A stretch of DNA of 57,357 bases, taken from the NCBI GenBank assembly GCA_902773675.1, contig CACYFN010000008.1:1-57357 (forward strand). The letters run 5' to 3'. The notes beneath the pieces were generated by a model, which saw nothing but the letters and a program-made list of their open reading frames with translations, did no database searches and had not been told where the DNA came from. The stretch is from an uncultured Erysipelotrichaceae bacterium. Its GTDB lineage: Bacteria > Bacillota_I > Bacilli_A > RF39 > UBA660. A program made the translations under genes and the position numbers. Positions 12,849-23,403 of this stretch are shown here, piece by piece (position 1 is the stretch's first letter; every line of letters begins with the position of its first letter).

Positions 12849-13110
12849 TATAATGGAGTCAATTATGGATATTAAAAATGAAGTATTAATATATGAATAT
12901 AAAGATGGATTAACTGGAGTTGATTTTAAATTTATAGATGAAGATGTTTGGTTAATTCAAAATCAATTAGCTAATATATATAAGATAACACAAGAAAATA
13001 TTTCAATGCATATATCAAATATTTATAAAGATAATGAATTACCAAGTTCAACTAATAAGAAAATCTTATTAGTTTAAAAAGAAGATAATCGAGATGTTAA
13101 AAAAATATAT
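12814..13110 (+). pseudogene. RhuM-family N-terminal fragment
   Basis: EDVWLIQNQLANIY..TQENISMHISNIYKDNEL..STNKKILLV*KEDNRDVK parallels ENIWLTQK...STIRKFRIVQKEGNREV of the intact copy at 14015; nonsense codon and truncation. Confidence 0.8.
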
Positions 13111-13152
13111 AATTAAAATGAATGATATTAATATAAATTGTGAGGTGAAAAT

Positions 13153-13788
13153 ATGGATTCAATAGAATATTGGGATAAAGTTGCTAAAGAAAAAACTTTT
13201 ACTACACCATTTCAATTGGAACTTTTTAAAGAATATGTAGGTAAAGATAAAAAAGTAGTAGATATTGGTTGTGGTTATGGAAGAATATTAAAGGAGTTAT
13301 TTGATAATGGGTATACTAATTTATTAGGAATTGATTTTTCTAATGAGATGATAAAACTTGCTAAAGAAAAATATTCATACATAAATTTTAAAGTTGCTAA
13401 TGGAAAAAATTTAGAATTTGAGAATAATAGTATAGATTCTATTATATTGTTTGCAGTACTTACTACTATATATGATAGTAAAAGTCAACAAGATTTGATT
13501 AAAGAAGTATATAGAGTGCTTAAAAAAGATGGTATTTTATATGTAAATGATTTTTTATTGAATGATAGTGATTTATATTTGAAACGATATAATAAATATA
13601 AAAATATATATCATGAATATGGTGTTTTTGAATCTAGTGATGGAGGAGTTTTTAAACATCATAGTGAAGAATATTTTAATGAATTATTAAGTGATTTTAA
13701 GTGTGAGAAAGAAAAAGTTTTAAAATTTAAGACTATTAATGGACATACTTCAAATGGAGTTTATTATTTAGGTAGAAAAAGAGGTTAA
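13153..13788 (+). CDS. Class I SAM-dependent methyltransferase
   Basis: VVDIGCGYGR motif I, GIDFSNEMI, EVYRVLKKDG. Confidence 0.9.
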   Translation: MDSIEYWDKVAKEKTFTTPFQLELFKEYVGKDKKVVDIGCGYGRILKELFDNGYTNLLGIDFSNEMIKLAKEKYSYINFKVANGKNLEFENNSIDSIILFAVLTTIYDSKSQQDLIKEVYRVLKKDGILYVNDFLLNDSDLYLKRYNKYKNIYHEYGVFESSDGGVFKHHSEEYFNELLSDFKCEKEKVLKFKTINGHTSNGVYYLGRKRG

Positions 13789-13793
13789 ATTTT

Positions 13794-14014
13794 AAAATAA
13801 AACTAATATAAATTGGTTAATAACAATTTAGTTAAGAACATTCTTAAAGTATTATAAAATAAAGAAAAAGTAAAAAATACATCTTTCATATTTTTTATAT
13901 AATTAGCAAAAAAATGATATAATTTATCAAAAATAGCTAAATATTTGTGATTTTTTGTTAGGGAGTTGGAAAGTGATTACAAAAGTTAAGAACATATAAA
14001 AAGAGGTGAATATA
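13794..14014 (+). repeat. Cassette junction 1 (rbgA 5' copy lacking start codon + leader)
   Basis: aaaataaaactaatataaattggttaataacaatttagttaagaaca ... tgattacaaaagttaagaacatataaaaagaggtg. Confidence 0.85.
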
Positions 14015-15073
14015 ATGAAAAAAAATGAAGTGACAATTAGATCTAGTGCAGCCGAATATTTAATTTTTATTGCTGCAACAGGTGATGATAAAGAATCAAT
14101 TGAAGTAAGATATGAAGATGAGAATATATGGTTAACACAAAAAATGCTTTCAACTTTATATAAAGTTGAAATAAACACAATTAATTATCATATTAAAAAA
14201 ATCTATAGTGATAATGAATTAAGTGAAGATTCAACTATTCGAAAATTTCGAATAGTTCAAAAAGAGGGTAATCGTGAAGTATCTAGAGATGTAGTTCATT
14301 ATAATCTTCAAATGATAATAGCTTTAGGTTTTAAGGTTGATAATGATAGAGCTGTTCAATTTAGAAAATGGGTTAATGAAATAGTTAAAGAATATACTAT
14401 TAAAGGTTTTGCTATGGATGACGATAGGCTTAAAAATGGTGGTTCTATATTAACTGAAAAATATTTTGATGAATTACTAGAAAGAATTAGAGAAATAAGG
14501 TTGTCAGAAAGAAGATTTTATCAAAAAGTAACAGATATATATGCTACAAGTATAGATTATGATAAGGATTCTAAAACAACTCTTGAGTTTTTTAAAACGG
14601 TTCAAAATAAAATGCATTATGCTGTTTCTGGAAATACTGCAGCTGAAATAATATATAATAGAGCTGATGCAAGTAAAGAACATATGGGATTAACTAATTG
14701 GATTGATGCTCCAGATGGTAAGATTATGAAAAGTGATGTTGTAATTGCTAAAAACTATCTTAGTGAAGAGGAACTGTATTCATTAAGAAGAATTGTTTCG
14801 GCATATTTAGATTTAGCAGAATCAAGAGCAGAAAGACACATACCGATGACTATGGAAGATTGGTCTAATAGACTAGATGAGTTTTTAAAATTAACTGATA
14901 GAGAAATATTAGAAGATGCTGGAAAAATTTCGCATAGAATTGCATGTGATAAAGCTGAATCTGAATTTGAAAAATATAGAATAGTACAAGATCAACTATA
15001 TATTAGTGATTTTGATAAATATATAAGTGAACTTGAAAATTTAGAAGAAAAATCTGATGAAAGTTTTAATTAA
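14015..15073 (+). CDS. rhuM: RhuM-family (virulence RhuM) DNA-binding protein
   Basis: IRSSAAEYL.F, ENIWLTQK, YNLQMIIALGFKV, QFRKW, KGFAMDDDRLK, YFDELLERIREIRLSERRFYQKVTDIYA. Confidence 0.9.
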   Translation: MKKNEVTIRSSAAEYLIFIAATGDDKESIEVRYEDENIWLTQKMLSTLYKVEINTINYHIKKIYSDNELSEDSTIRKFRIVQKEGNREVSRDVVHYNLQMIIALGFKVDNDRAVQFRKWVNEIVKEYTIKGFAMDDDRLKNGGSILTEKYFDELLERIREIRLSERRFYQKVTDIYATSIDYDKDSKTTLEFFKTVQNKMHYAVSGNTAAEIIYNRADASKEHMGLTNWIDAPDGKIMKSDVVIAKNYLSEEELYSLRRIVSAYLDLAESRAERHIPMTMEDWSNRLDEFLKLTDREILEDAGKISHRIACDKAESEFEKYRIVQDQLYISDFDKYISELENLEEKSDESFN

Positions 15074-15076
15074 ATA

Positions 15077-15198
15077 AACTATTTCAAATTTTAAAATAGT
15101 TGAACTTATAAGAAATGCTTATAATTTGAATAATATTATTTGATATCCGTCGAATTCGACGGAATATGAATTTAAAGTGTTCAAATTTGAACACTTTA
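15077..15198. repeat. Array of back-to-back palindromes
   Basis: aactatttcaaa-t-tttaaaatagtt; aacttataag-aaatg-cttataattt; aataatattatt; tccgtcgaattcgacgga; taaagtgttcaaatttgaacacttta. Confidence 0.85.
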
Positions 15199-15219
15199 TA
15201 AAAAGAGGGTGAGAAAAAT

Positions 15220-16338
15220 ATGAATAAAAATGAAAATACAAATAATCAAAAATATACAATAATATCATTTGTAGCTGTAAGCAATGAAAATGTAAATAAA
15301 TTTGTAGAAGAAGATAACAATAATAATATATTTATTAATGCATTTGATGATATATACTATTTAGTATTAGCGAATAAATCAAATTTAGACGAAAGATTAT
15401 TAGTAAATGACAATTATAGATATTTAAAGAACAGTTCAGAGATTGAAAATTTAAATAATACAATAAAAATTGATGATTTGCTAAAAAAGTATGTAGAAGA
15501 AAATGATAGATTTATTATTATACATAGTTATGCAAATGAATATGAAGAGTCATTGGCAATGAAATTATTTAAAAATATCATTAATAGTAATAAGGAATGT
15601 GTGAATGTATTTTTAATTCCGCCTACATTTACAGGTAAGGTTGATTTATTTCTAAAATTTAAGTATGAACTATTAAACTCATCAGCAAAAAATTATTATT
15701 TTGCTTGTGATGATATACTACCAAAACTTCCTTCAGATTTATCATTAGGACAGTTAAATGCATTTTTTTACAAATGTTTGTTTGAAATTGCATATAGTGT
15801 TGGAACAAATTTTAATGTAAGTGATATTTTAGATAAAATAATATCTAATGTTAAAACAAATATGAAAACTAATATATTTGAGTATGAAGATGAAGAATTT
15901 GGTAAAATAAAATTTGAATTGCTTGAGGATAGAGCGATAATTTTAGAACCTATAGTAATATTTGACAATAAAAATATCTATCCGGAAATATCATTTGATT
16001 ATAAAGGATGTGGACAAACATTAAGTGAATTTAAAAAAAATATTTCATCATATGTTAACGTTTTAAAAAATATAATAAGTAAAAAAGATGATATATTAAA
16101 TAGTTTATATGATAAAGCTTTAGAATTATATATTAATTGGGAAGAAGTAACTGAATCAAATATTGATTATGTAAAAGAGCATACTTCAATAAGTTTTATT
16201 GATATATATGATGGACAAGCAAATATTAAAGCAGCTGGATATGATAAAGATAAATTACTTTTAGGAGGTCATTTTATTGAGGCTATTATTGATAGTAATG
16301 AAATAGATTCTAAAAATATAGAATGGAATATATTTTAA
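15220..16338 (+). CDS. Hypothetical protein (cassette cargo)
   Basis: 372 aa ORF with gagggtga RBS; no confident family. Confidence 0.7.
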   Translation: MNKNENTNNQKYTIISFVAVSNENVNKFVEEDNNNNIFINAFDDIYYLVLANKSNLDERLLVNDNYRYLKNSSEIENLNNTIKIDDLLKKYVEENDRFIIIHSYANEYEESLAMKLFKNIINSNKECVNVFLIPPTFTGKVDLFLKFKYELLNSSAKNYYFACDDILPKLPSDLSLGQLNAFFYKCLFEIAYSVGTNFNVSDILDKIISNVKTNMKTNIFEYEDEEFGKIKFELLEDRAIILEPIVIFDNKNIYPEISFDYKGCGQTLSEFKKNISSYVNVLKNIISKKDDILNSLYDKALELYINWEEVTESNIDYVKEHTSISFIDIYDGQANIKAAGYDKDKLLLGGHFIEAIIDSNEIDSKNIEWNIF

Positions 16339-16355
16339 TGGATTAATAAAGTCTA

Positions 16356-16572
16356 TTGAATGAAAATAAAACTAATATAAACTGGTTGATTTCAATTTAG
16401 TTAAGAATATACGAAAGCCCCTATAAACAAAGGTGTTTCTCAAAATACATCTTGCCTGTTTTTAAGAAAAATGGCTAAAAATTGCAAAAAAATGCAAAAA
16501 ATAGGTATTTTTTTATTAAGAAGTTGCAAGTTGATTACAGAAGTTAAGAACATATAAAAAAGAGGTGAAATA
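16356..16572 (+). repeat. Cassette junction 2
   Basis: ttgaatgaaaataaaactaatataaactggttgatttcaatttagttaagaa ... ttgattacagaagttaagaacatataaaaaagaggtg. Confidence 0.9.
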
Positions 16573-17433
16573 ATGGAATTTAATTTTTTAGAGGAACAAG
16601 AAAAAATAATGTTAGCAAATGAACACATTAATGGGATAATAACTAAATATAATGAAATATTAATGAATTTAAGCGATAAAGAAAAAAATGTAATGCAACT
16701 TTATTACTATTTTAAAAAATTAGATACTTTTAAGTCGATGACACCAAAAGGTAATTATTGGGACGACAAAAGAGAAAAGTATATAAATAAAGGATTAGAA
16801 ATAATTAAAAATCTTGGAACAAAAACTTTTTCAAATATACATAGTTTAGATGAAATAAGAAAAAATGTTGATAGTTATATGAGTAATAGTGATTTATTAA
16901 ATATTATTACTAGTTTTTCTTTAGAAATAAAATCAGCATATAAAAAATATTGTGACTATGTTTATACTGTTTTACCTATATCGGGTATAAAAGAACTTGA
17001 AGAAAGCAGACATAGAGAAAATCAATATTTAAATAGTATTAATAATGGTGTATTTGCTACTGCAACAATGGAAAGTATTGAAAAATACATTGCTAGAGCT
17101 AATGTTGGTGGTATGATAGTTCATGGCAATGAAATTGAATATCCATCTAATCCATTTTTAAATATTAGTGAAGAAGGATTAACATTAATAAAACCTGTTT
17201 CAATATATTTAAGTAATGTTGATTTATTTGAACCACAATTTGATTATGAAATAGATTCTAATGGTATTCCACATTTTGTTTATGGAGGAGAATGGATTGC
17301 TCCACATGAAAAAGTTCCATGTATAGAAAAACAAACAACATATTTACCAACCTCATTCCTAGAAAATAATATAGTGTATTATCAAGAAAATGGTGAAATG
17401 ATTCAAATTAATAAAGAAATTAAAAAATTATAA
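16573..17433 (+). CDS. Hypothetical protein (cassette cargo)
   Basis: 286 aa ORF right after the leader RBS. Confidence 0.7.
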   Translation: MEFNFLEEQEKIMLANEHINGIITKYNEILMNLSDKEKNVMQLYYYFKKLDTFKSMTPKGNYWDDKREKYINKGLEIIKNLGTKTFSNIHSLDEIRKNVDSYMSNSDLLNIITSFSLEIKSAYKKYCDYVYTVLPISGIKELEESRHRENQYLNSINNGVFATATMESIEKYIARANVGGMIVHGNEIEYPSNPFLNISEEGLTLIKPVSIYLSNVDLFEPQFDYEIDSNGIPHFVYGGEWIAPHEKVPCIEKQTTYLPTSFLENNIVYYQENGEMIQINKEIKKL

Positions 17434-17450
17434 CAAAGGAGGTAATACTT

Positions 17451-17660
17451 ATGAATGAAAATAAAACTAATATAAACTGGTTGATATTGATTTAGTCTAA
17501 CTATTTTTGGACATCCCATAAAATAAGGAAAACTAATATTTTGTAATTACATTTTTTTTATGAATAATTACTAAAAAGTATTAAATAATTGTAAAAAATA
17601 GCCAAAAATAACATAGTATTTTTTACTTGGTATTGACGGTTAAACTTTTATAAAAATGAG
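17451..17660 (+). repeat. Cassette junction 3
   Basis: aaggaggt RBS, ATG AAT GAA AAT AAA ACT AAT ATA AAC TGG ttgatattgatttagtctaact ... tacttggtattgacggttaaact. Confidence 0.9.
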
Positions 17661-18599
17661 GTGATTATTTTGAATTTAATAGATACATTAAATACAAGTT
17701 ATGAATATGTTTGTGATAACTCCAGAAATGTAAAAATAAATTATGATAAAATTGATGATTTAATTGATCAGATTAATAACTCAAAAGTTGATTATTGGTT
17801 AGATCCAAATCCATATGGTTTAATGGATATGGATGTAAAAGAAATAATTAATTTCTTATTCATATATCATGCAATAGGAGATTATTGCTTTTGGGGAGAT
17901 CCTAAATGGGAAGTAAAAACAGATCTAGGTGTTATGGATGGGTCTTATGCAATAATGTACTTAATACTAAATAGATTTAAATCAAATAATAATTTTGAAA
18001 TTAGTTTTGATGAATTTAAAGAATTATTAAAAGGAAATGTAACAATTCCATTGTTAGAAGATAGATATCAAAATTTAGTAGAAATGAATAGATTTCTTAA
18101 ATCTAAAAATAAGTCATTCTATGAATTAATTAAAGAATTAAACATTGATAGTGAATTATTTGAATTTATAGTTAATAATTTAGATTATTTTAAAGATATA
18201 TCTAATTATGGAGGAAAAGAAATACTATTTTATAAAAGAGCTCAATTATTAACTTCTGATATTCTACATGTTAAAGAGAAGAAAGAAAATATTGAAGTAG
18301 ATTATTCTCATTTAATTGGTTGTGCTGATTATAAAATACCTCAAGTTATGAGATGCTATGGTATGTTAGAATTCAGTGATAGTTTAGGAGATAAAGTTGA
18401 TTCTAAAATAGAATTAAAAGAAGGTTCTGAAGAAGAAATAGAAATAAGAGCAAATACTTTAAAAGTAATAAACTATATATATGAAAGATTAGATAAAAAA
18501 TATTCTCGCATGGATATAAATGATTTTATATGGCTACTAGGTCAAAATAAATCTCAAATGACTAAACCATATCATAGAACATTAACAAAACATTATTAA
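17661..18599 (+). CDS. Queuosine salvage family protein (DUF2419/Qng1-like queuosine nucleotide N-glycosylase)
   Basis: YCFW, FYKRAQL, ADYKIPQV, EEEIEIRA, INDFIWL, PYHRTLTKHY motifs; start GTG 17661 or TTG 17670. Confidence 0.85.
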   Translation: MIILNLIDTLNTSYEYVCDNSRNVKINYDKIDDLIDQINNSKVDYWLDPNPYGLMDMDVKEIINFLFIYHAIGDYCFWGDPKWEVKTDLGVMDGSYAIMYLILNRFKSNNNFEISFDEFKELLKGNVTIPLLEDRYQNLVEMNRFLKSKNKSFYELIKELNIDSELFEFIVNNLDYFKDISNYGGKEILFYKRAQLLTSDILHVKEKKENIEVDYSHLIGCADYKIPQVMRCYGMLEFSDSLGDKVDSKIELKEGSEEEIEIRANTLKVINYIYERLDKKYSRMDINDFIWLLGQNKSQMTKPYHRTLTKHY

Positions 18600-18666
18600 G
18601 CCATATGCCCGGGCAACTATCTTGGTTAACTTGGTATTGGATTAGTCTAATTACGATAAATGACTT

Positions 18667-18703
18667 AAAAAAGGACGAAATAGTACTAAATTTCGCCTTT
18701 TTT
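18667..18703 (+). terminator. Rho-independent terminator (A-tract/T-tract, possibly bidirectional)
   Basis: aaaaaagg(a)cgaaat-agtactaa-atttcgcctttttt. Confidence 0.7.
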
Positions 18704-18704
18704 A

Positions 18705-18713
18705 TGCTATAAT
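18705..18713 (+). promoter_or_regulatory. Extended -10 promoter ahead of rbgA-copy ATG 18737
   Basis: TGcTATAAT, then ggagtga RBS and ATG. Confidence 0.6.
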
Positions 18714-18736
18714 TGAATAGAAATGGAGTGATTCCT

Positions 18737-18994
18737 ATGGATAATAGAACTAATATAAATTGGTTGATTACGATTTATAGTAACTTTTGGAGAAACTCTT
18801 TATTTATAAGGTTTTGCGAAGAATAACATCTTGCATGTTTAATATATAATATTATGAATTTTAATAAAAAATAGTCAAAAAAATATTATGAATTTTAATA
18901 AAAAATAGTTAAAAACGGCTAAAACAAGATAAAAATAACATAGGAATTATAGTGTTGATTACGACACAGTAACTCATGTAAAAGAGGTATGTTT
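18737..18994 (+). repeat. Cassette junction 4 (MDNRTNINW variant; contains 34-bp tandem duplication)
   Basis: atggataatagaactaatataaattggttgattacgatttatagtaact ... gttgattacgacacagtaact ... aaaagaggt. Confidence 0.9.
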
Positions 18995-19426
18995 ATGAAT
19001 TATAAATTGATAAAATCATCAAGTAAAGATATAGAAAAATTAATTGAATACAAAAAAAGAACAATCTTTGAATATGCTAAAGATTTACCTGATGATGAAA
19101 TTAATAAAATAAATAATTATGTAAAAAATAATGTTTTAAAATTACTTAATGATTATTCTAATATAATTGTAGATAATAAAGTAATAGGTTGTTTACTATT
19201 AACAAATAAAGACGATAACATATTGTTAGATGAAATATATATTGAACAAGAATATAGAAATAAAGGTATTGGAACAGATATAATAAAAAATGTAATAAAT
19301 GAAAATGATATAATATATTTATGGGTATATAAAGAAAACGTAAAAGCAATCTCATTGTATAAAAAACTAGGATTTAACGTGATAGATGAAACTGATTCTA
19401 GATATTATATGAAGTATAGCACGTAA
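18995..19426 (+). CDS. GNAT-family N-acetyltransferase
   Basis: EIYIEQEYRNKGIGT, LWVYKENVKAISLYKKLGF. Confidence 0.9.
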   Translation: MNYKLIKSSSKDIEKLIEYKKRTIFEYAKDLPDDEINKINNYVKNNVLKLLNDYSNIIVDNKVIGCLLLTNKDDNILLDEIYIEQEYRNKGIGTDIIKNVINENDIIYLWVYKENVKAISLYKKLGFNVIDETDSRYYMKYST

Positions 19427-19440
19427 AGGAGTTGATGTTG

Positions 19441-19670
19441 ATGAATGAAAATAAAACTAATATAAACTGGTTGAGAACAATTTAGTCAAGACCACGCCTA
19501 AATCTTTATAATATAAGGAAAAATCCCAAAATAGATCTTACATGTTTTATATAAAAATATGTTGAAATAAGTAAAAAATAGTTAAAATTGAGTATTTTTA
19601 AGTAAAAATTGCTTTGGAATTGATATGGTGAGAACGGCTAGTTAAGACCAGTAAAAAATGAGGTGAAATA
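19441..19670 (+). repeat. Cassette junction 5
   Basis: aaggag RBS, atgaatgaaaataaaactaatataaactggttgagaacaatttagtcaagacca ... tgagaacggctagttaagacca ... tgaggtg. Confidence 0.9.
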
Positions 19671-20509
19671 ATGGTAGTAAATGAAATTACAGTAAATGAT
19701 TATTTAACTAAATCAAATTTACCAGATAGTGACTACGTAATTAATCCATATGTTGGTTGTACACATGGTTGTAAGTATTGTTATGCATCTTTTATGAAAA
19801 GATTTACTGGTCATAAAGAAAACTGGGGAGAAACTGGGGAGATTTTATTGATATTAAAAGATGTAATAAACCGATCGATTTAAGAAAAATTTCAGGTAAA
19901 AATATATTTTTATCTTCAGTTACTGATTGTTATAATCAATATGAAAAAGATTTTTGTATTACAAAAAATATATTAGAACAGTTAATCGATTCAGATTGTA
20001 ATTTATCTATTTCTACAAAGTCAAAATTAATTTTAAGAGATATTGATTTATTAAAACAAATGAAAAATTTGATAGTTTGTATATCTATAAATACATTGAA
20101 TGAAAAGTTTAGAAGTGATATGGATAATGCAAGTACTATAAAAGAAAGAATGGATACATTAAAAGAATTGCACAATAATGGAATTTATACTGTATTATTT
20201 ATGTCGCCAGTCTTTCCTTATATAACTGAATGGAAAGAAATAATAGATCAGACAAAAGATTATGTTGATGAATATTGGTTTGAAAATTTAAATTTAAGGG
20301 GCAATTATAAAAAAGAAATCTTAGACTATATTAGAACTAATTATTCAGATTTATACTCAGATTATATTGATATATATTTAAAGAAAAATAATAAATATTG
20401 GAAAGATTTAGCTGAAGAAATAAATAATTATTGTAATCTAAATAACATTAATTATACAAATTATTTCTATCATAAAGAATTAGTTGAGAAGAAGAAAGAA
20501 GGTAATTAA
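19671..20509 (+). pseudogene. Radical SAM protein (spore photoproduct lyase-like family), frameshifted
   Basis: INPYVGCTHGCKYCYA (CxxxCxxC); 11-bp duplication aactggggaga at 19821-19842; removing one copy gives NWGDFIDIK..IFLSSVTDCY..ISTKSKLILRDIDLL continuous with ORF 20060-20509. Confidence 0.85.
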
Positions 20510-20981
20510 ATGATTGAAAATTTTTTAATAGAAGCAAAAAAGCAAACATACGCTAATGAAAATGCTCCAAAAATTGATAGTTCAAGATTGAATTCTAAAG
20601 ATTACGAATATAAAAAAGGTAATATGATTTATCATGATACCTATTTTGGTGGTACGAACTTTATTGGAGACGAACTTTATTGGAGAAGAAGTTGTTTATA
20701 TAGATAATCAAACATATTGGGCTATGAATTATTATGGAACAACTTTAGATGAAACACTAGGCGAAGAAGCTATGGATAAAGCTTTAAGACCAGCTCTTAT
20801 GAAAGTGGGAGAAGATGTTAACGTAATTCCTGTAAGAGGACCAAAGGAATTTATTAATGGTGAATATAAGTACACTTTTGAAATAAGAGGAGACATAAAC
20901 TGTTTTAATGGTATAGAGAGTGTATATAAAAATGATGTTAAGATATATGAATTAAGATGTACAGGTGGTTTAATTAAATAA
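20510..20981 (+). pseudogene. DUF5680-like protein, frameshifted
   Basis: FLIEAKKQTYA, YHDTYFGG, GEEVV, WAMNYYG, PVRGP, GG.IK; 16-bp duplication acgaactttattggag at 20654-20685 splits the frame. Confidence 0.8.
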
Positions 20982-21001
20982 AATTGAAGGAGTTGATCCA
21001 A

Positions 21002-21203
21002 ATGAATGAAAATAAAACTAATATAAACTGGTTGTAATTATTTGCAAAACTCCTATAAAATAAGGAAAAAACAAGTATATGCTTGTTACATAATTTAATA
21101 AAAATATAAAAATAATAATAAAAACAATTAAAAAAGTATCAAAAATGGCATAGTATTTGATACTTGGTATTGACGGTTAAAGTTTTAGTAAAGAGGTGGA
21201 AGT
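21002..21203 (+). repeat. Cassette junction 6 (left box apparently deleted)
   Basis: aaggagttgatccaa atgaatgaaaataaaactaatataaactggttg ... tacttggtattgacggttaaa ... gaggtg. Confidence 0.9.
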
Positions 21204-21689
21204 ATGCTTGATTTATCTAATATATATAAAATAACAAAACAAATAGATGAGCAATTTGCATTATATTATGGTAATGAAGAAGAAATAGTGCGAAAAAATA
21301 GATTAGAATTATTAGTTGAACTTGGTGAATTAGCTAACGAAACTAGATGTTTTAAGTATTGGTCTATAAAGCAAACAGGAGAAAAAGAAAAAGTATTGGA
21401 AGAATATATAGATTGTTTATTTATGACTTTATATTTTTCTAATATTACTGGCATATCATTAGATGAAGAATTTCCATCTTCATTAAATGGTGATATAATT
21501 GATACGTTTTTAAGTTTAAATAAATTCGCAAGTAGTATAAGTGTTGTACCTAAAAAAGAAGAAGTTAAAAAAATATTGGTAGAATTAGATCATCTTGCTA
21601 AACTACTTAATTTTACAATAGAAGATTTAGAAAGAGTTACAAAAATTAAAACTAAAATTATTGAAAGCAGATTCAATAGTGAGTATTAA
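21204..21689 (+). CDS. Dimeric (all-alpha) dUTPase
   Basis: LLVELGELANETRCFKYWS, VLEEYIDCLF. Confidence 0.85.
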   Translation: MLDLSNIYKITKQIDEQFALYYGNEEEIVRKNRLELLVELGELANETRCFKYWSIKQTGEKEKVLEEYIDCLFMTLYFSNITGISLDEEFPSSLNGDIIDTFLSLNKFASSISVVPKKEEVKKILVELDHLAKLLNFTIEDLERVTKIKTKIIESRFNSEY

Positions 21690-21705
21690 AAAGGAGTTGA
21701 TCCAA

Positions 21706-21936
21706 ATGAATGAAAATAAAACTAATATAAATTGGTTGATTACGATTTATTTAACCTCTTTAAGGAATCCTTTGTTTGTAAGGCTTTGCGGAATTTAACA
21801 TCTTGCATGTTTTATGTAATAATATGTTAAAATAGACAAAAATTAGTAAAAAATGACTATTTTTATTGAAAAATAATGGAGGAATTAGTAAGGTGATTAC
21901 ACCTTTTAACCCCCCCAGAGAAAATGAGGTGAAATA
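21706..21936 (+). repeat. Cassette junction 7
   Basis: aaggagttgatccaa atgaatgaaaataaaactaatataaattggttgattacgatttatttaacc ... tgattacaccttttaacc ... tgaggtg. Confidence 0.9.
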
Positions 21937-22521
21937 ATGAAAGATTATATATTTATAATAGGACCTAGTGGAGTTGGTAAAACAACATTTGCTAAAGGTT
22001 TATTTGAACATTATAAAGGTGTTTACTTTGAACAAAATATGATTCCTGAATTTGGTATACCTGATAATGTAGATGAAGGCAAATATGAAGAAGAAATATT
22101 GTGGGAAAGCTCTATTGAATTATTAAAATATTTCCATAATAAAGGAATTAAAAATATTATTGCTTTGGATTTTAATGATTTAAGAACTAGAGAAATACCA
22201 ACAACCTTTAAAGGTACTAATTTTATTACTCTTAAATTAATTTCATCTATTTATGAACAAAATAAGAATCAAATGTTAGAACGTGGTGAAAAAGGATTAG
22301 TTGATTTAGAGCTACTTGAAGTATCAACTAAAAAGATAATGAATAGAGAATTACTTCCTAATGAAGTATTATTAGATGTTGCTAATAAATCAAAAGAAGA
22401 AGTATTAAAAGAGGCAATTAATATTATAGATAATTATGATTGTAAATTAGATTATGAATATACAGAACCATCAAAAGAATCATTTTATTCTTGGGTTCAA
22501 AGTGATGGATTAAGGAAGTGA
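21937..22521 (+). CDS. P-loop kinase/AAA-family protein
   Basis: IIGPSGVGKTT Walker A. Confidence 0.75.
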   Translation: MKDYIFIIGPSGVGKTTFAKGLFEHYKGVYFEQNMIPEFGIPDNVDEGKYEEEILWESSIELLKYFHNKGIKNIIALDFNDLRTREIPTTFKGTNFITLKLISSIYEQNKNQMLERGEKGLVDLELLEVSTKKIMNRELLPNEVLLDVANKSKEEVLKEAINIIDNYDCKLDYEYTEPSKESFYSWVQSDGLRK

Positions 22522-22527
22522 TTTTTA

Positions 22528-23403
22528 ATGAATAATGAAGAAAAAAACTTACAAAAAACGAACATTAACTGGTATCCAGGTCATATGGCTAAAACCAAAA
22601 GATTAATAATTGAAAATATAAATTTAATAGATGTTGTATATGAGGTAATAGATGCTAGAATGCCTTATTCATCTAAGATAAAGGATATTGATAATTTTAT
22701 TAAGGATAAAAAGAGAATATTAATTATGACTAAAATTGATTTATGTGATATGGATGAAACTAATAAATGGATTAAATATTATCAAGGATTAGGTTATAAA
22801 GTAATATGTTTAAATTTAGAGGGTAATACTAATTTAGATAATTTAATTAAAATGACTACTGATATTATGAAGGAAGAGAATGAAAAAAGATTAAGTAAAG
22901 GTATGAAAGTTAGAAAGACTAGAGTACTTGTTGTTGGAATTCCAAATGTTGGTAAAAGTACTTTAATTAATAGATTAGTTGGTAAAAAGGTAGCTAATGT
23001 TGGTAATATGCCTGGTGTTACTAAAAATTTAAATTGGATAAGAATTAATGATAATATAGAACTACTTGATTCTCCTGGTATTTTATGGCCTAAATTAGAT
23101 GAAGAGAATGTTGCTTTTAATTTAGCTAGTCTGACTTCTATTAAGGAAGAAATATTACCTATTGATGAAGTTGTTATTTATATATTAAATACATTAAATA
23201 AATATTATTCTAATATATTAAAAGAAAGATATGGTATTGATTATATTAGTGATGATATAGAAGAAACTTTAGAAAGTATTGGTAGAATGAGAGGTTGTCT
23301 TGTACGTGGTGGGGTAGTTGATTATGATAAAGTTTATAGTGTTGTTATGAATGATATAAAAAGTGGATTAGTGAAAGGAATTACGTTTGATAGATATGAA
23401 TAA
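22528..23403 (+). CDS. rbgA: Ribosome biogenesis GTPase RbgA/YlqF
   Basis: INWYPGHMAK, DARMP.SS, TKID, GIPNVGKSTLIN, PGVTK, LLDSPGILWP. Confidence 0.97.
   Translation: MNNEEKNLQKTNINWYPGHMAKTKRLIIENINLIDVVYEVIDARMPYSSKIKDIDNFIKDKKRILIMTKIDLCDMDETNKWIKYYQGLGYKVICLNLEGNTNLDNLIKMTTDIMKEENEKRLSKGMKVRKTRVLVVGIPNVGKSTLINRLVGKKVANVGNMPGVTKNLNWIRINDNIELLDSPGILWPKLDEENVAFNLASLTSIKEEILPIDEVVIYILNTLNKYYSNILKERYGIDYISDDIEETLESIGRMRGCLVRGGVVDYDKVYSVVMNDIKSGLVKGITFDRYE

Follow-up and report, generated by a model that had tools for sequence, protein, structure and literature searches.

Matched pairs of variable boxes flank the leaders of single-gene cassettes arrayed at the start of rbgA

The window, a stretch of 57,357 nucleotides from an uncultured Erysipelotrichaceae bacterium, carries a tandem array of single-gene cassettes that has no recombinase of its own and interrupts rbgA directly behind its Trp codon (TGGT) (Table 1). 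The core repeated between cassettes is a copy of the rbgA RBS and first ten codons (peptide MNENKTNINW), and the 3' end of each cassette supplies a new start for the gene. The window has seven core copies where chance would give 0.29, while the remaining 1.46-Mb genome yields loose core matches only (up to three mismatches allowed), with no common flank by eye. In cassette-free relatives the same letters run uninterrupted into the codons for YPGHMAK, and in cassette-bearing relatives the cassettes sit at the identical point of rbgA. The core at junction J4 is a variant, its layout resembling the native rbgA upstream region in a cassette-free relative. Arrays of this kind are found in numerous genome bins of rumen and gut Bacilli, with the core present in at least 118 stretches from rumen and gut bins; arrays reach about 20 units of 0.7-2.5 kb each, and where the same gene was found twice the upstream neighbours were unrelated in 57 of 59 pairs. 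The array is a previously undescribed integron-like cassette row at the start of an essential gene.

Table 1. Features of the cassette array and its rbgA target (positions in the window; J1 to J7, junctions).
Feature	Positions	Strand	Remark
Methyltransferase	13153-13788	+	cassette gene
J1 core	13791-13817	+	truncated rbgA-start copy, last letters TGGT
J1 left box	13818-13841	+	
J1 right box	13974-13993	+	directly 5' of RBS of RhuM-family gene
RhuM family	14006-15073	+	cassette gene
372-aa ORF	15220-16338	+	cassette gene, grouped with RhuM family
J2 core	16354-16386	+	
J2 left box	16387-16410	+	
J2 right box	16532-16551	+	
286-aa ORF	16573-17433	+	cassette gene
J3 core	17436-17481	+	RBS, ATG and ten rbgA-like codons
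J3 left box	17482-17505	+	
J3 right box	17627-17646	+	
Queuosine-salvage family	17661-18599	+	cassette gene
J4 core variant	18674-18764	+	own terminator-like hairpin, promoter-like stretch, RBS, start
J4 left box	18765-18787	+	
J4 right box	18954-18974	+	
GNAT acetyltransferase	18989-19426	+	cassette gene
J5 core	19426-19471	+	
J5 left box	19472-19494	+	
J5 right box	19629-19650	+	
Radical SAM	19671-20509	+	cassette gene, frameshifted
DUF5680	20510-20981	+	cassette gene, frameshifted
J6 core	20987-21032	+	
J6 left box	21033-21046	+	truncated; about 14 nt absent vs other junctions (alignment)
J6 right box	21164-21183	+	J3 kind
dUTPase_2	21204-21689	+	cassette gene
J7 core	21692-21736	+	
J7 left box	21737-21757	+	
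J7 right box	21894-21911	+	
P-loop protein	21937-22521	+	cassette gene
rbgA (ylqF)	22528-23403	+	target gene; native junction TGGT, then codons for YPGHMAK

Each cassette opens with a box of about 22 nt. An earlier note on this DNA had described how the sequence lying 3' of the core reappears directly 5' of the RBS. This holds for some 20 nt at six of the seven junctions, with box starts at 19472/19629 for J5, 18763/18954 for J4 and 21737/21894 for J7. The same 9-mer stands in the left and right boxes of both J1 and J2, and the middle of the right copy is 1-2 nt shorter than that of the left. The exception is J6, with a left box cut short (21033). In contigs from other runs, the end of the J3 left box is joined to the J6 leader with about 12 different letters between them, which fits the presence of a complete left box in related leaders. 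Across 196 cassette junctions, only TGA and a stretch around ATTTA are conserved after TGGT, and conservation across 98 right boxes is limited to the two opening letters; ATTTA is kept in the left copy and absent from the right. Left and right copies have different middles, and the difference is fixed for each type, which a simple target-site duplication would not predict.

Covariation of the two boxes was measured on 141 long leaders, drawn from the window and related loci among the matches listed. Left boxes aligned locally with the right-box window of the same leader score 11.04 on average, compared to 8.10 against the right windows of other leaders and 7.59 against 63 nt of the leader's own interior, and none of 2000 permutations reached the observed left-right mean. 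The best match is the right box of the same type in seven of eight box-type rows, and by unsupervised clustering 105 of 125 leaders from the seven main left-box clusters have the matching right-box cluster. Within one type (38 leaders), left-right mismatches over the first 9 nt average 0.68 versus 1.29 when permuted (0 of 5000), and in disjoint pairs of leaders with the most similar interiors, left-box differences are mirrored on the right in 15 of 29. Between box types, leader interiors reach an identity of 0.85, with within-type means of 0.66-0.76, and each leader carries its own matched pair. Covariation beyond shared ancestry, whose failure in a larger set the earlier note had named as grounds for refutation, survives across eight types, within one type and on closely similar backbones. 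In one box type the left-right match is confined to the first half, and roughly 10-15% of leaders have mismatched pairs, so a matched pair is not necessary for a cassette to persist.

Two forms of cassette start are found. In the leaderless form, a single box lies between TGGT and the RBS; in the leader-bearing form, the box occurs twice, as direct repeats around a leader of about 150 nt. The left copy adjoins the crossover point, and we interpret it as the arm that the cassette contributes to the recombination site. The right copy stands in the 5' untranslated region, where leaderless cassettes have their single box. Among the matches listed there are 207 unique leaders, 39 of them short (leaderless) and about 145 long. 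The middle of the short boxes is left-like in 28, right-like in 10 and either in one; left-like and right-like single boxes are the two products expected if the repeats recombine. A given gene may have a leader in one cassette and none in another, and its box type may vary. Box type is common to both members in 7 of 18 same-gene short/long pairs, as against 527 of 5499 short/long pairs overall; it differs in the other 11, so that replacement as a block is no rarer than a leader being gained or lost in situ. The same gene also occurs behind differing box or leader types, with breakpoints between box and RBS, and one upstream gene has different boxes downstream of it. Contigs from other runs revealed no leader excision within a population.

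The leader, we infer, contains a promoter-like module; a scan with a promoter consensus found 96 promoter-like sites, with 91 expected. The sequence immediately 5' of the right box has no measurable likeness to the core, so that the right box is not demonstrable as a former junction. Terminal inverted repeats of the leaders do not rise above controls (score 7.34, vs 6.80 for shuffled and 8.31 for reversed sequences). Insertion of a MITE-like element finds no support, since such terminal repeats are lacking and the duplication is about 20 nt with an altered middle, rather than short and perfect.

No recombinase was found among the 30 ORFs scanned around the array in the window, nor upstream of the array in another genome (G061), and among the loci screened only one (L079) has a tyrosine-recombinase fragment within the fetched flank of up to 8 kb. 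None of four proteins tested reaches the integron-integrase cut-off. Neither an IntI-type tyrosine recombinase beside the array, as in integrons, nor an element-encoded tyrosine integrase with transfer genes, as in Tn5253-type elements, nor a DEDD/IS110 recombinase tied to a guide-bearing RNA was found. IS110-family genes were not detected in two of five array genomes searched (G061 and G063), and the single copy in the present genome is an unrelated, ordinary insertion sequence on another contig. XerC and XerD are present, and in one array genome they are the only intact tyrosine recombinases detected. Genome G063, with 12 cassettes of several types, encodes two intact tyrosine recombinases of about 300 aa and no detected serine recombinase, although this genome may be incomplete. 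A connection between the arrays and Xer is a lead at most. An 11-nt XerD-arm motif matched the AT-rich genome loosely at 1684 places, with no clear dif for comparison.

The best reading of these results, which we put forward tentatively and at slightly less than even odds, is that the box pair represents the end of a cassette in two copies, with a promoter module that can be detached lying between them. A promoter-like leader module placed at the box of a cassette would come to have a box on both sides, recombination between the two copies would remove the leader again, and leader modules would be swapped between cassettes as blocks. The recombinase would act in trans, candidates being the host XerC/XerD or the rbgA-targeting integrase of a conjugative element. 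Duplication of the box and recombination between its copies would be enough to produce covariation, with no code for type-specific proteins or a guide RNA. Support comes from leader interiors that are alike across types yet have their own matched pairs, and from the coupling within a type. Homologous recombination at the conserved core of about 45 nt and at the RBS could be sufficient to explain the shuffling. A bolder proposal, and a distinctly unlikely one, treats the box pair as a working address. A recombinase acting in trans, either host Xer or an integrase that targets rbgA, would pair the two copies of one cassette via the type-specific letters they share, and would excise or restore the leader as a small circle. 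In the boldest form of this proposal, the address would be read by base pairing with the leader transcript.

Alternatively, the pairs might be a historical relic of a single ancient duplication, with old module lineages passed on whole through homologous recombination at universal flanks, the core on the left and the RBS on the right; the boxes would have no coupling today, and the right box no role. Left-box clusters do follow right-box clusters together with the leader's 3' portion (ARI 0.73), block exchange of modules has its breakpoints at these flanks, and mixed pairs mostly change type inside the leader (by eye), as homologous recombination predicts. We nevertheless consider this explanation unlikely, if a serious contender: drift should erode the likeness, but eight types differing in both halves each keep left like right, sub-variants within a type change jointly on interiors that are 0.85-0.93 identical, and interiors are nearly as similar across types as within them. 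The earlier note had called the coupled boxes a specificity code, and while the coupling is real, neither reader then proposed, recombinase or accessory variants or else a guide RNA, is supported. In the protein version, the boxes would be paired sites, for example arm-type, for heterobivalent tyrosine integrases or excisionases, with different trans-acting recombinase families, such as those of rbgA-targeting conjugative elements, each moving its own type. Integrases of conjugative elements are known to act on the 5' end of rbgA (PMC8571831, PMC4701971), which speaks for such a scheme, as do the discreteness of the box types and the necessity of a recombinase in trans. However, arrays mix many types, with a median of 0.9 distinct box clusters per cassette at 16 loci having at least four cassettes, and six clusters for six cassettes in the window; G063 combines several types with only two intact tyrosine recombinases, and L079 alone among the loci screened has a recombinase gene in its flank. 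Moreover, the left box lies at the crossover, where one would expect a site of the core type and not of the arm type, the right box is without TGA and ATTTA, the sole parts conserved across all types, and leaderless cassettes carry one box. Readout by type-specific proteins is therefore disfavoured, and this version seems to us quite improbable.

Very improbable is a nucleic-acid guide, in which a leader RNA carrying the right box would pair, on both sides of ATTTA, with the bottom strand of the left box in the same cassette and steer the recombinase to the cassette's own site, as bridge and seek RNAs do. Such a guide would account for coupling in excess of ancestry and for the fact that the parts in common between boxes are the type-specific ones, flanking a conserved, unshared centre; the right box would also lie downstream of the leader promoter, if that promoter is real. 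Against it stand the failure to find IS110-family genes in two of five array genomes, the leaders' lack of any matching Rfam family, consensus fold or structured guide-presenting loops, and the persistence of mixed pairs and leaderless cassettes. The right box, furthermore, is a direct copy of the left rather than its complement, and both halves would pair with the same strand, unlike in bridge RNAs. An RNA switch, with both boxes pairing alternately with a third segment, like attenuator regions 1 and 3, would regulate the cassette gene at the level of read-through or translation. Co-varying direct repeats are what alternative pairing with a common partner should produce, and by eye the right-box middle is complementary to the RBS in the J7 type and one other. 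Yet complementarity of boxes to the interior or RBS region is at about the level of reversed controls or below it (6.57 vs 6.12, 7.14 vs 7.28 and 5.72 vs 6.38), a comparison that weakly refutes the switch; no consensus structure was found among the leaders, and the left box would be upstream of the proposed promoter. We give this last explanation hardly any credence.

Integrons are the textbook gene-capture system and, to our knowledge, are essentially confined to Gram-negative lineages. The array described here is a functionally similar gene bank on another site, the start of an essential ribosome-assembly gene, holding up to about 20 single-gene cassettes with no dedicated integrase beside it, and it is apparently common in uncultured small-genome rumen and gut Bacilli. 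The paired boxes add a further layer, in which a promoter-like module may be present, absent or exchanged before the same gene. If that exchange is catalysed and not accidental, expression of banked genes could switch by moving promoters rather than genes, and if the working-address proposal were true, the system would be an integron-like gene bank with mobile, type-addressed promoters. Box types, leaderless partners with the same gene, and a defined crossover point provide handles for finding the recombinase of the arrays.

Several known systems share features with the array. Its insertion point is presumably the codon boundary used by Tn5253-type elements, judging from the start of the streptococcal RbgA protein. 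Tn5253 is reported to integrate after nucleotide 20 of rbgA, the gene being put back in frame by the duplication (PMC8571831), and streptococcal conjugative elements with tyrosine integrases are reported to insert in the rbgA 5' end (PMC4701971). Tn5253/Tn5252-type elements (PMC8571831, PMC4701971) resemble the array in using the same gene and the same end, and in carrying a copy of the gene start, by which duplication restores the frame; insertion in the first rbgA codons with a frame-restoring duplication is found here as well. Those elements, however, span tens of kb, bring their own integrase and transfer genes and occur as single insertions, whereas the array units are small, integrase-less and stacked. 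In Acinetobacter, pdif modules are reported to be small, bounded by short sites, devoid of a recombinase and thought to be moved by XerC/XerD (PMC7399989, PMC13141974). The cassettes here similarly have short bounding sites and no recombinase of their own. Sites of the pdif kind consist of XerC and XerD arms around a 6-nt spacer; they are plasmid-borne and of alternating orientation, while the array sites are all direct and lie in a chromosomal gene start.

The bridge and seek RNAs of IS110/IS1111 elements resemble the boxes in having two variable short segments around a fixed centre, repeated in a non-coding stretch beside the recombination site. Unlike them, the boxes have no associated IS110-type recombinase or structured RNA, and complementarity that is split between strands in the IS110/IS1111 guides is direct in the boxes. 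CIMEs (cis-mobilizable elements), familiar from the Streptococcus thermophilus ICESt3 literature, are bounded by attachment-site repeats, lack recombination and transfer genes, stack in tandem and depend on a recombinase in trans, the integrase of a related element; no cognate integrase was found for the array. The array shares with them its repeat-flanked tandem units without recombination or transfer genes; known CIMEs, however, are few per site and several kb long, whereas the array units are many and small, and we know of no paired boxes or promoter modules in CIMEs. To integrons, finally, the array is likened by its long one-way row of mobile accessory genes, mostly single and unrelated, which are gathered at one place in the chromosome and delimited by a recurring recombination site, by the promoterless state of some cassettes, and by the recurrence of the same cassettes in varying order across genomes. 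The repeated site of integrons is the attC hairpin; here it is a copy of a gene start with no adjacent IntI, the cassette 3' end shows no attC-type imperfect inverted repeat or hairpin, and the boxes are direct repeats. Unlike integron cassettes, most cassettes here have their own leader, and their hosts are low-GC, Bacilli-like gut bacteria.

The array upstream of rbgA consists of units stacked at an insertion point behind the Trp codon of that gene. A core of about 20 nt occurs in seven copies in the window, the junctions J1 to J7, against 0.29 expected by chance; elsewhere in the 1.46-Mb genome a pattern search allowing up to three mismatches found only loose matches, with no common flank by eye. 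Together with the RBS and ATG upstream of it, the core encodes MNENKTNINW, and in insertion-free relatives of the same family the identical letters run on into YPGHMAK at the N-terminal end of the ribosome-biogenesis GTPase RbgA/YlqF. It is from this identity of the core with the rbgA start, and from the uninterrupted reading in cassette-free relatives, that the stacking follows. The 3' end of each unit supplies a replacement RBS and gene start for rbgA. The genes carried are accessory and mutually unrelated: a methyltransferase, a RhuM family member with an unknown ORF, a further unknown ORF, a queuosine-salvage family member, a GNAT acetyltransferase, a radical SAM protein, DUF5680, dUTPase_2 and a P-loop protein. 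No recombinase was found among the ORFs neighboring the array in the window. By eye, the native rbgA site forms an imperfect palindrome centered on the crossover point, and the ATTTA of the left box mirrors the A-rich end of the core; likeness of the core to dif/Xer sites is only a lead, the scan for it being too noisy to use.

A scan of one genome per species placed the core in at least 118 stretches, and among the matches listed the sources are almost all rumen or gut genome bins with the label Bacilli, Erysipelotrichaceae, Tenericutes or Clostridia. Core copies number 5 to 24 in single genomes, and in one array about 20 units lie 5' of the last junction. The listed loci plus the window gave 299 core matches, comprising 29 native rbgA junctions and 210 usable cassette junctions, with 207 unique leaders.

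Several features along the window and in related loci are collected in the table. The small ORFs to the left, and the decayed junction after them, are features of a region into which the array may extend in eroded form. The inverted rbgA codons may be a relic of inversion between attachment sites. In layout the 3'-end variant is like the native sequence upstream of rbgA in a relative free of cassettes (G031); it could be either what was originally the chromosomal left arm or a cassette end giving rbgA a promoter anew. The radical SAM and DUF5680 genes are intact elsewhere, since contigs of other runs lack the duplications, which are either strain-specific frameshifts or assembly slips.

Positions of features in the window, in other contigs of its genome and in related loci (L numbers)
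Sequence	Position	Feature	Detail
Window	about 9.3 to 13.1 kb	small, unrelated ORFs	HTH protein; weak Bro-N match; weak GIY-YIG match; one fragment like the RhuM N-terminus (by eye)
Window	13100-13152	decayed junction upstream of the methyltransferase gene	gene-start copy remnant fused almost directly to the RBS
Window	13.8 to 21.7 kb	seven core copies, J1 to J7
Window	18600-18660	conserved rbgA codons for PGHMA in reverse complement, immediately 3' of the queuosine-salvage gene	GC-rich 14-mer (genome 23% GC); J3-kind box-like stretch adjoins
Window	18674-18745	cassette 3'-end variant with terminator-like hairpin, promoter-like stretch and different gene-start copy	widely shared: L049, L055, L064, L069, L086, L090, L094 and others
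Window	19809-19831	11-nt tandem duplication breaking the radical SAM gene	11 nt missing in contigs of three other DNA runs
Window	about 20655-20690	16-nt tandem duplication breaking the DUF5680 gene	16-nt gaps across the gene in two of those three runs
Window	22528-23403	rbgA, 3' of the array	junction reads TGGT, then native codons
L003 (contig C19)		close paralogue of the C20 recombinase	adjoins a Fic-like gene and insertion-sequence fragments
L004 (contig C20)		tyrosine recombinase of about 326 aa	flanked by two restriction-specificity (hsdS-like) genes
L007 (contig C47)	1200-2763	one complete IS110-family element	unrelated to cassette leaders
L079	1-465 (minus strand); 850-1560	Xer/integron-like tyrosine recombinase gene and the cassette gene next to it	recombinase gene about 1.1 kb from the first junction
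L057	2171	divergent cassette class
L028		divergent cassette class
L125	6197	divergent cassette class
L124	1836	divergent cassette class

Leader length is bimodal among unique leaders. In the short form (39 leaders of at most 70 nt), TGGT is followed by a single box and then the RBS; in the long form, with about 145 members, a left box, a leader and a right box intervene. Reading and alignment of the seven junctions bore out the letters and coordinates first given for the box pairs: in J1 to J5 and J7, the roughly 20 nt after the core reappear about 150 nt on, directly 5' of the RBS, as two common halves around a differing middle that is 1-2 nt shorter in the right copy. J6, the exception, joins a truncated left box to a right box of the J3 kind. 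Across 196 cassette junctions, only TGA and a stretch around ATTTA, about 9-14 nt in, are well conserved after TGGT, and we take the left box to be the putative cassette-side arm of the recombination site. Conservation in 98 right boxes is limited to the first two letters; the right box lacks exactly the conserved arm letters and retains the type-specific ones. Of the single boxes of short forms, 28 resemble left boxes, 10 resemble right boxes and one could be either, and left-like and right-like boxes are the two outcomes expected if the repeats recombine in the second or the first common half. A second, divergent cassette class, with A after TGGT and the Tyr codon kept, has a different leader family, yet also a left-right box pair, with about 15 nt in common and no changed middle.

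The left-right covariation proposed in the earlier note extends to the larger set, beyond what chance or shared ancestry accounts for. In 141 long leaders, left boxes scored 11.04 in alignment with their own right box, compared with 8.10 for other right boxes and 7.59 for their own interior, the part of the leader between the boxes; the own-pair mean was reached in none of 2000 permutations. Clustered without supervision, the boxes fell into 17 left and 33 right clusters (adjusted Rand index 0.73), the matching right cluster being present in 105 of the 125 leaders of the seven main left clusters. When eight groups were compared, the best match fell to the group's own right box in seven of eight rows and six of eight columns, the exception being one type that matches in the first half only. 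Coupling also exists within a type: for one represented by 38 leaders, left and right boxes differed at a mean of 0.68 of the first 9 nt, and at 1.29 after permutation (0 of 5000). In the 12 disjoint pairs whose interiors are most alike, the right box mirrors 15 of 29 left-box differences. Interiors reach an identity of 0.85 across different box types, and mean identities between types (0.45-0.71) compare with 0.66-0.76 within type. Given the pair coupling and these interior comparisons, the boxes change together on similar backbones, the probable signature of duplication at the box rather than of slow independent drift. Mutual information over column pairs of the whole alignment was dominated by family structure and uninformative. 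Mixed pairs, some 10-15% of long leaders, mostly switch type within the leader by eye, which fits homologous exchange between leaders.

Upstream neighbors are unrelated in 57 of the 59 pairs of junctions that the same gene follows, which shows that the units move. One gene may carry different 5' modules, short in one case and long in another, or with other box types, the breakpoints falling after the box but before the RBS. Conversely, among the matches listed, different boxes and leaders follow one and the same upstream gene (L050_12 and L110_37, artefacts of an incomplete upstream flank, were left out). Taken together, these arrangements show that the box, or the block of left box, leader and right box, is exchangeable relative to both neighbors. 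Box type is common to both members in 7 of 18 short/long pairs of the same gene and in 527 of 5499 short/long pairs overall, a difference that points to leader gain or loss in place.

The specificity code first proposed for the pair fared less well in both of its versions. Type-specific proteins, whether recombinase or accessory variants, are unlikely readers of the boxes, because arrays mix many box types (in 16 loci of four or more cassettes, the median number of distinct clusters per cassette is 0.9) and because one array genome with 12 cassettes, of unknown completeness, has only two intact tyrosine recombinases of about 300 aa, and no serine recombinase was found in it. The corresponding pair in the window's genome clears the XerD and XerC cut-offs, and the other tyrosine recombinases of that genome adjoin restriction-specificity genes or a Fic-like gene; the C20 locus has the look of a type I restriction system with phase variation. 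A leader RNA acting as guide is unsupported, since no IS110-family genes were found in two of five array genomes, leaders gave no Rfam match at E up to 5, RNAalifold returned no consensus structure for 47 non-redundant leaders, and the right box repeats the left box directly and is not its complement. The sole IS110 element of the window's genome is an ordinary insertion sequence unlike the leaders. It has a GC-richer non-coding stretch of about 270 nt before its transposase gene, the usual place of the bridge RNA.

Other accounts of the pair were tried and rejected. For an attenuator-like third partner pairing with both boxes, complementarity did not exceed that of reversed controls, and for a MITE-like origin of the leader no terminal inverted repeats were found. 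A decayed core before the right box failed two tests, though the flank is similar by eye: the 20 nt 5' of the right box scored 5.68 against the RBS-to-ATG part of the junction (5.70 for the reversed control), and the 12 nt nearest to it gave 2.75 with the 3'-terminal 12 nt of the core (2.73 reversed). We tentatively prefer to read the supposed code as a duplicated cassette end around a detachable promoter-like module. That the leader carries a promoter is inferred from -35/-10-like letters conserved in J1, J4 and J7; matches to leaders in a consensus promoter scan did not exceed shuffled expectation. Catalyzed, address-dependent switching of leaders seems improbable, and would be the most interesting outcome if true. 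Contigs from four sequencing runs, short pieces broken at repeats with many joints between paralogous leaders, showed no transcript ends and no joints from leader or cassette excision, and offered nothing usable on these points or on expression.

In the literature searched, neither paired boxes nor cassette arrays at rbgA were found described, and to that extent the integron-like cassette array at the rbgA start is previously undescribed. At L079, the only such locus among those screened, the recombinase gene is directed away from the array, an orientation like that of intI in integrons, and the cassette gene next to it forms an in-frame fusion with the rbgA-like start. PMC8571831 places the integration point of Tn5253 downstream of nucleotide 20 of rbgA, with a duplication that restores the reading frame, and PMC4701971 gives the rbgA 5' end as the insertion site of streptococcal elements with tyrosine integrases. 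As published, such large conjugative elements follow the same logic as the cassettes.
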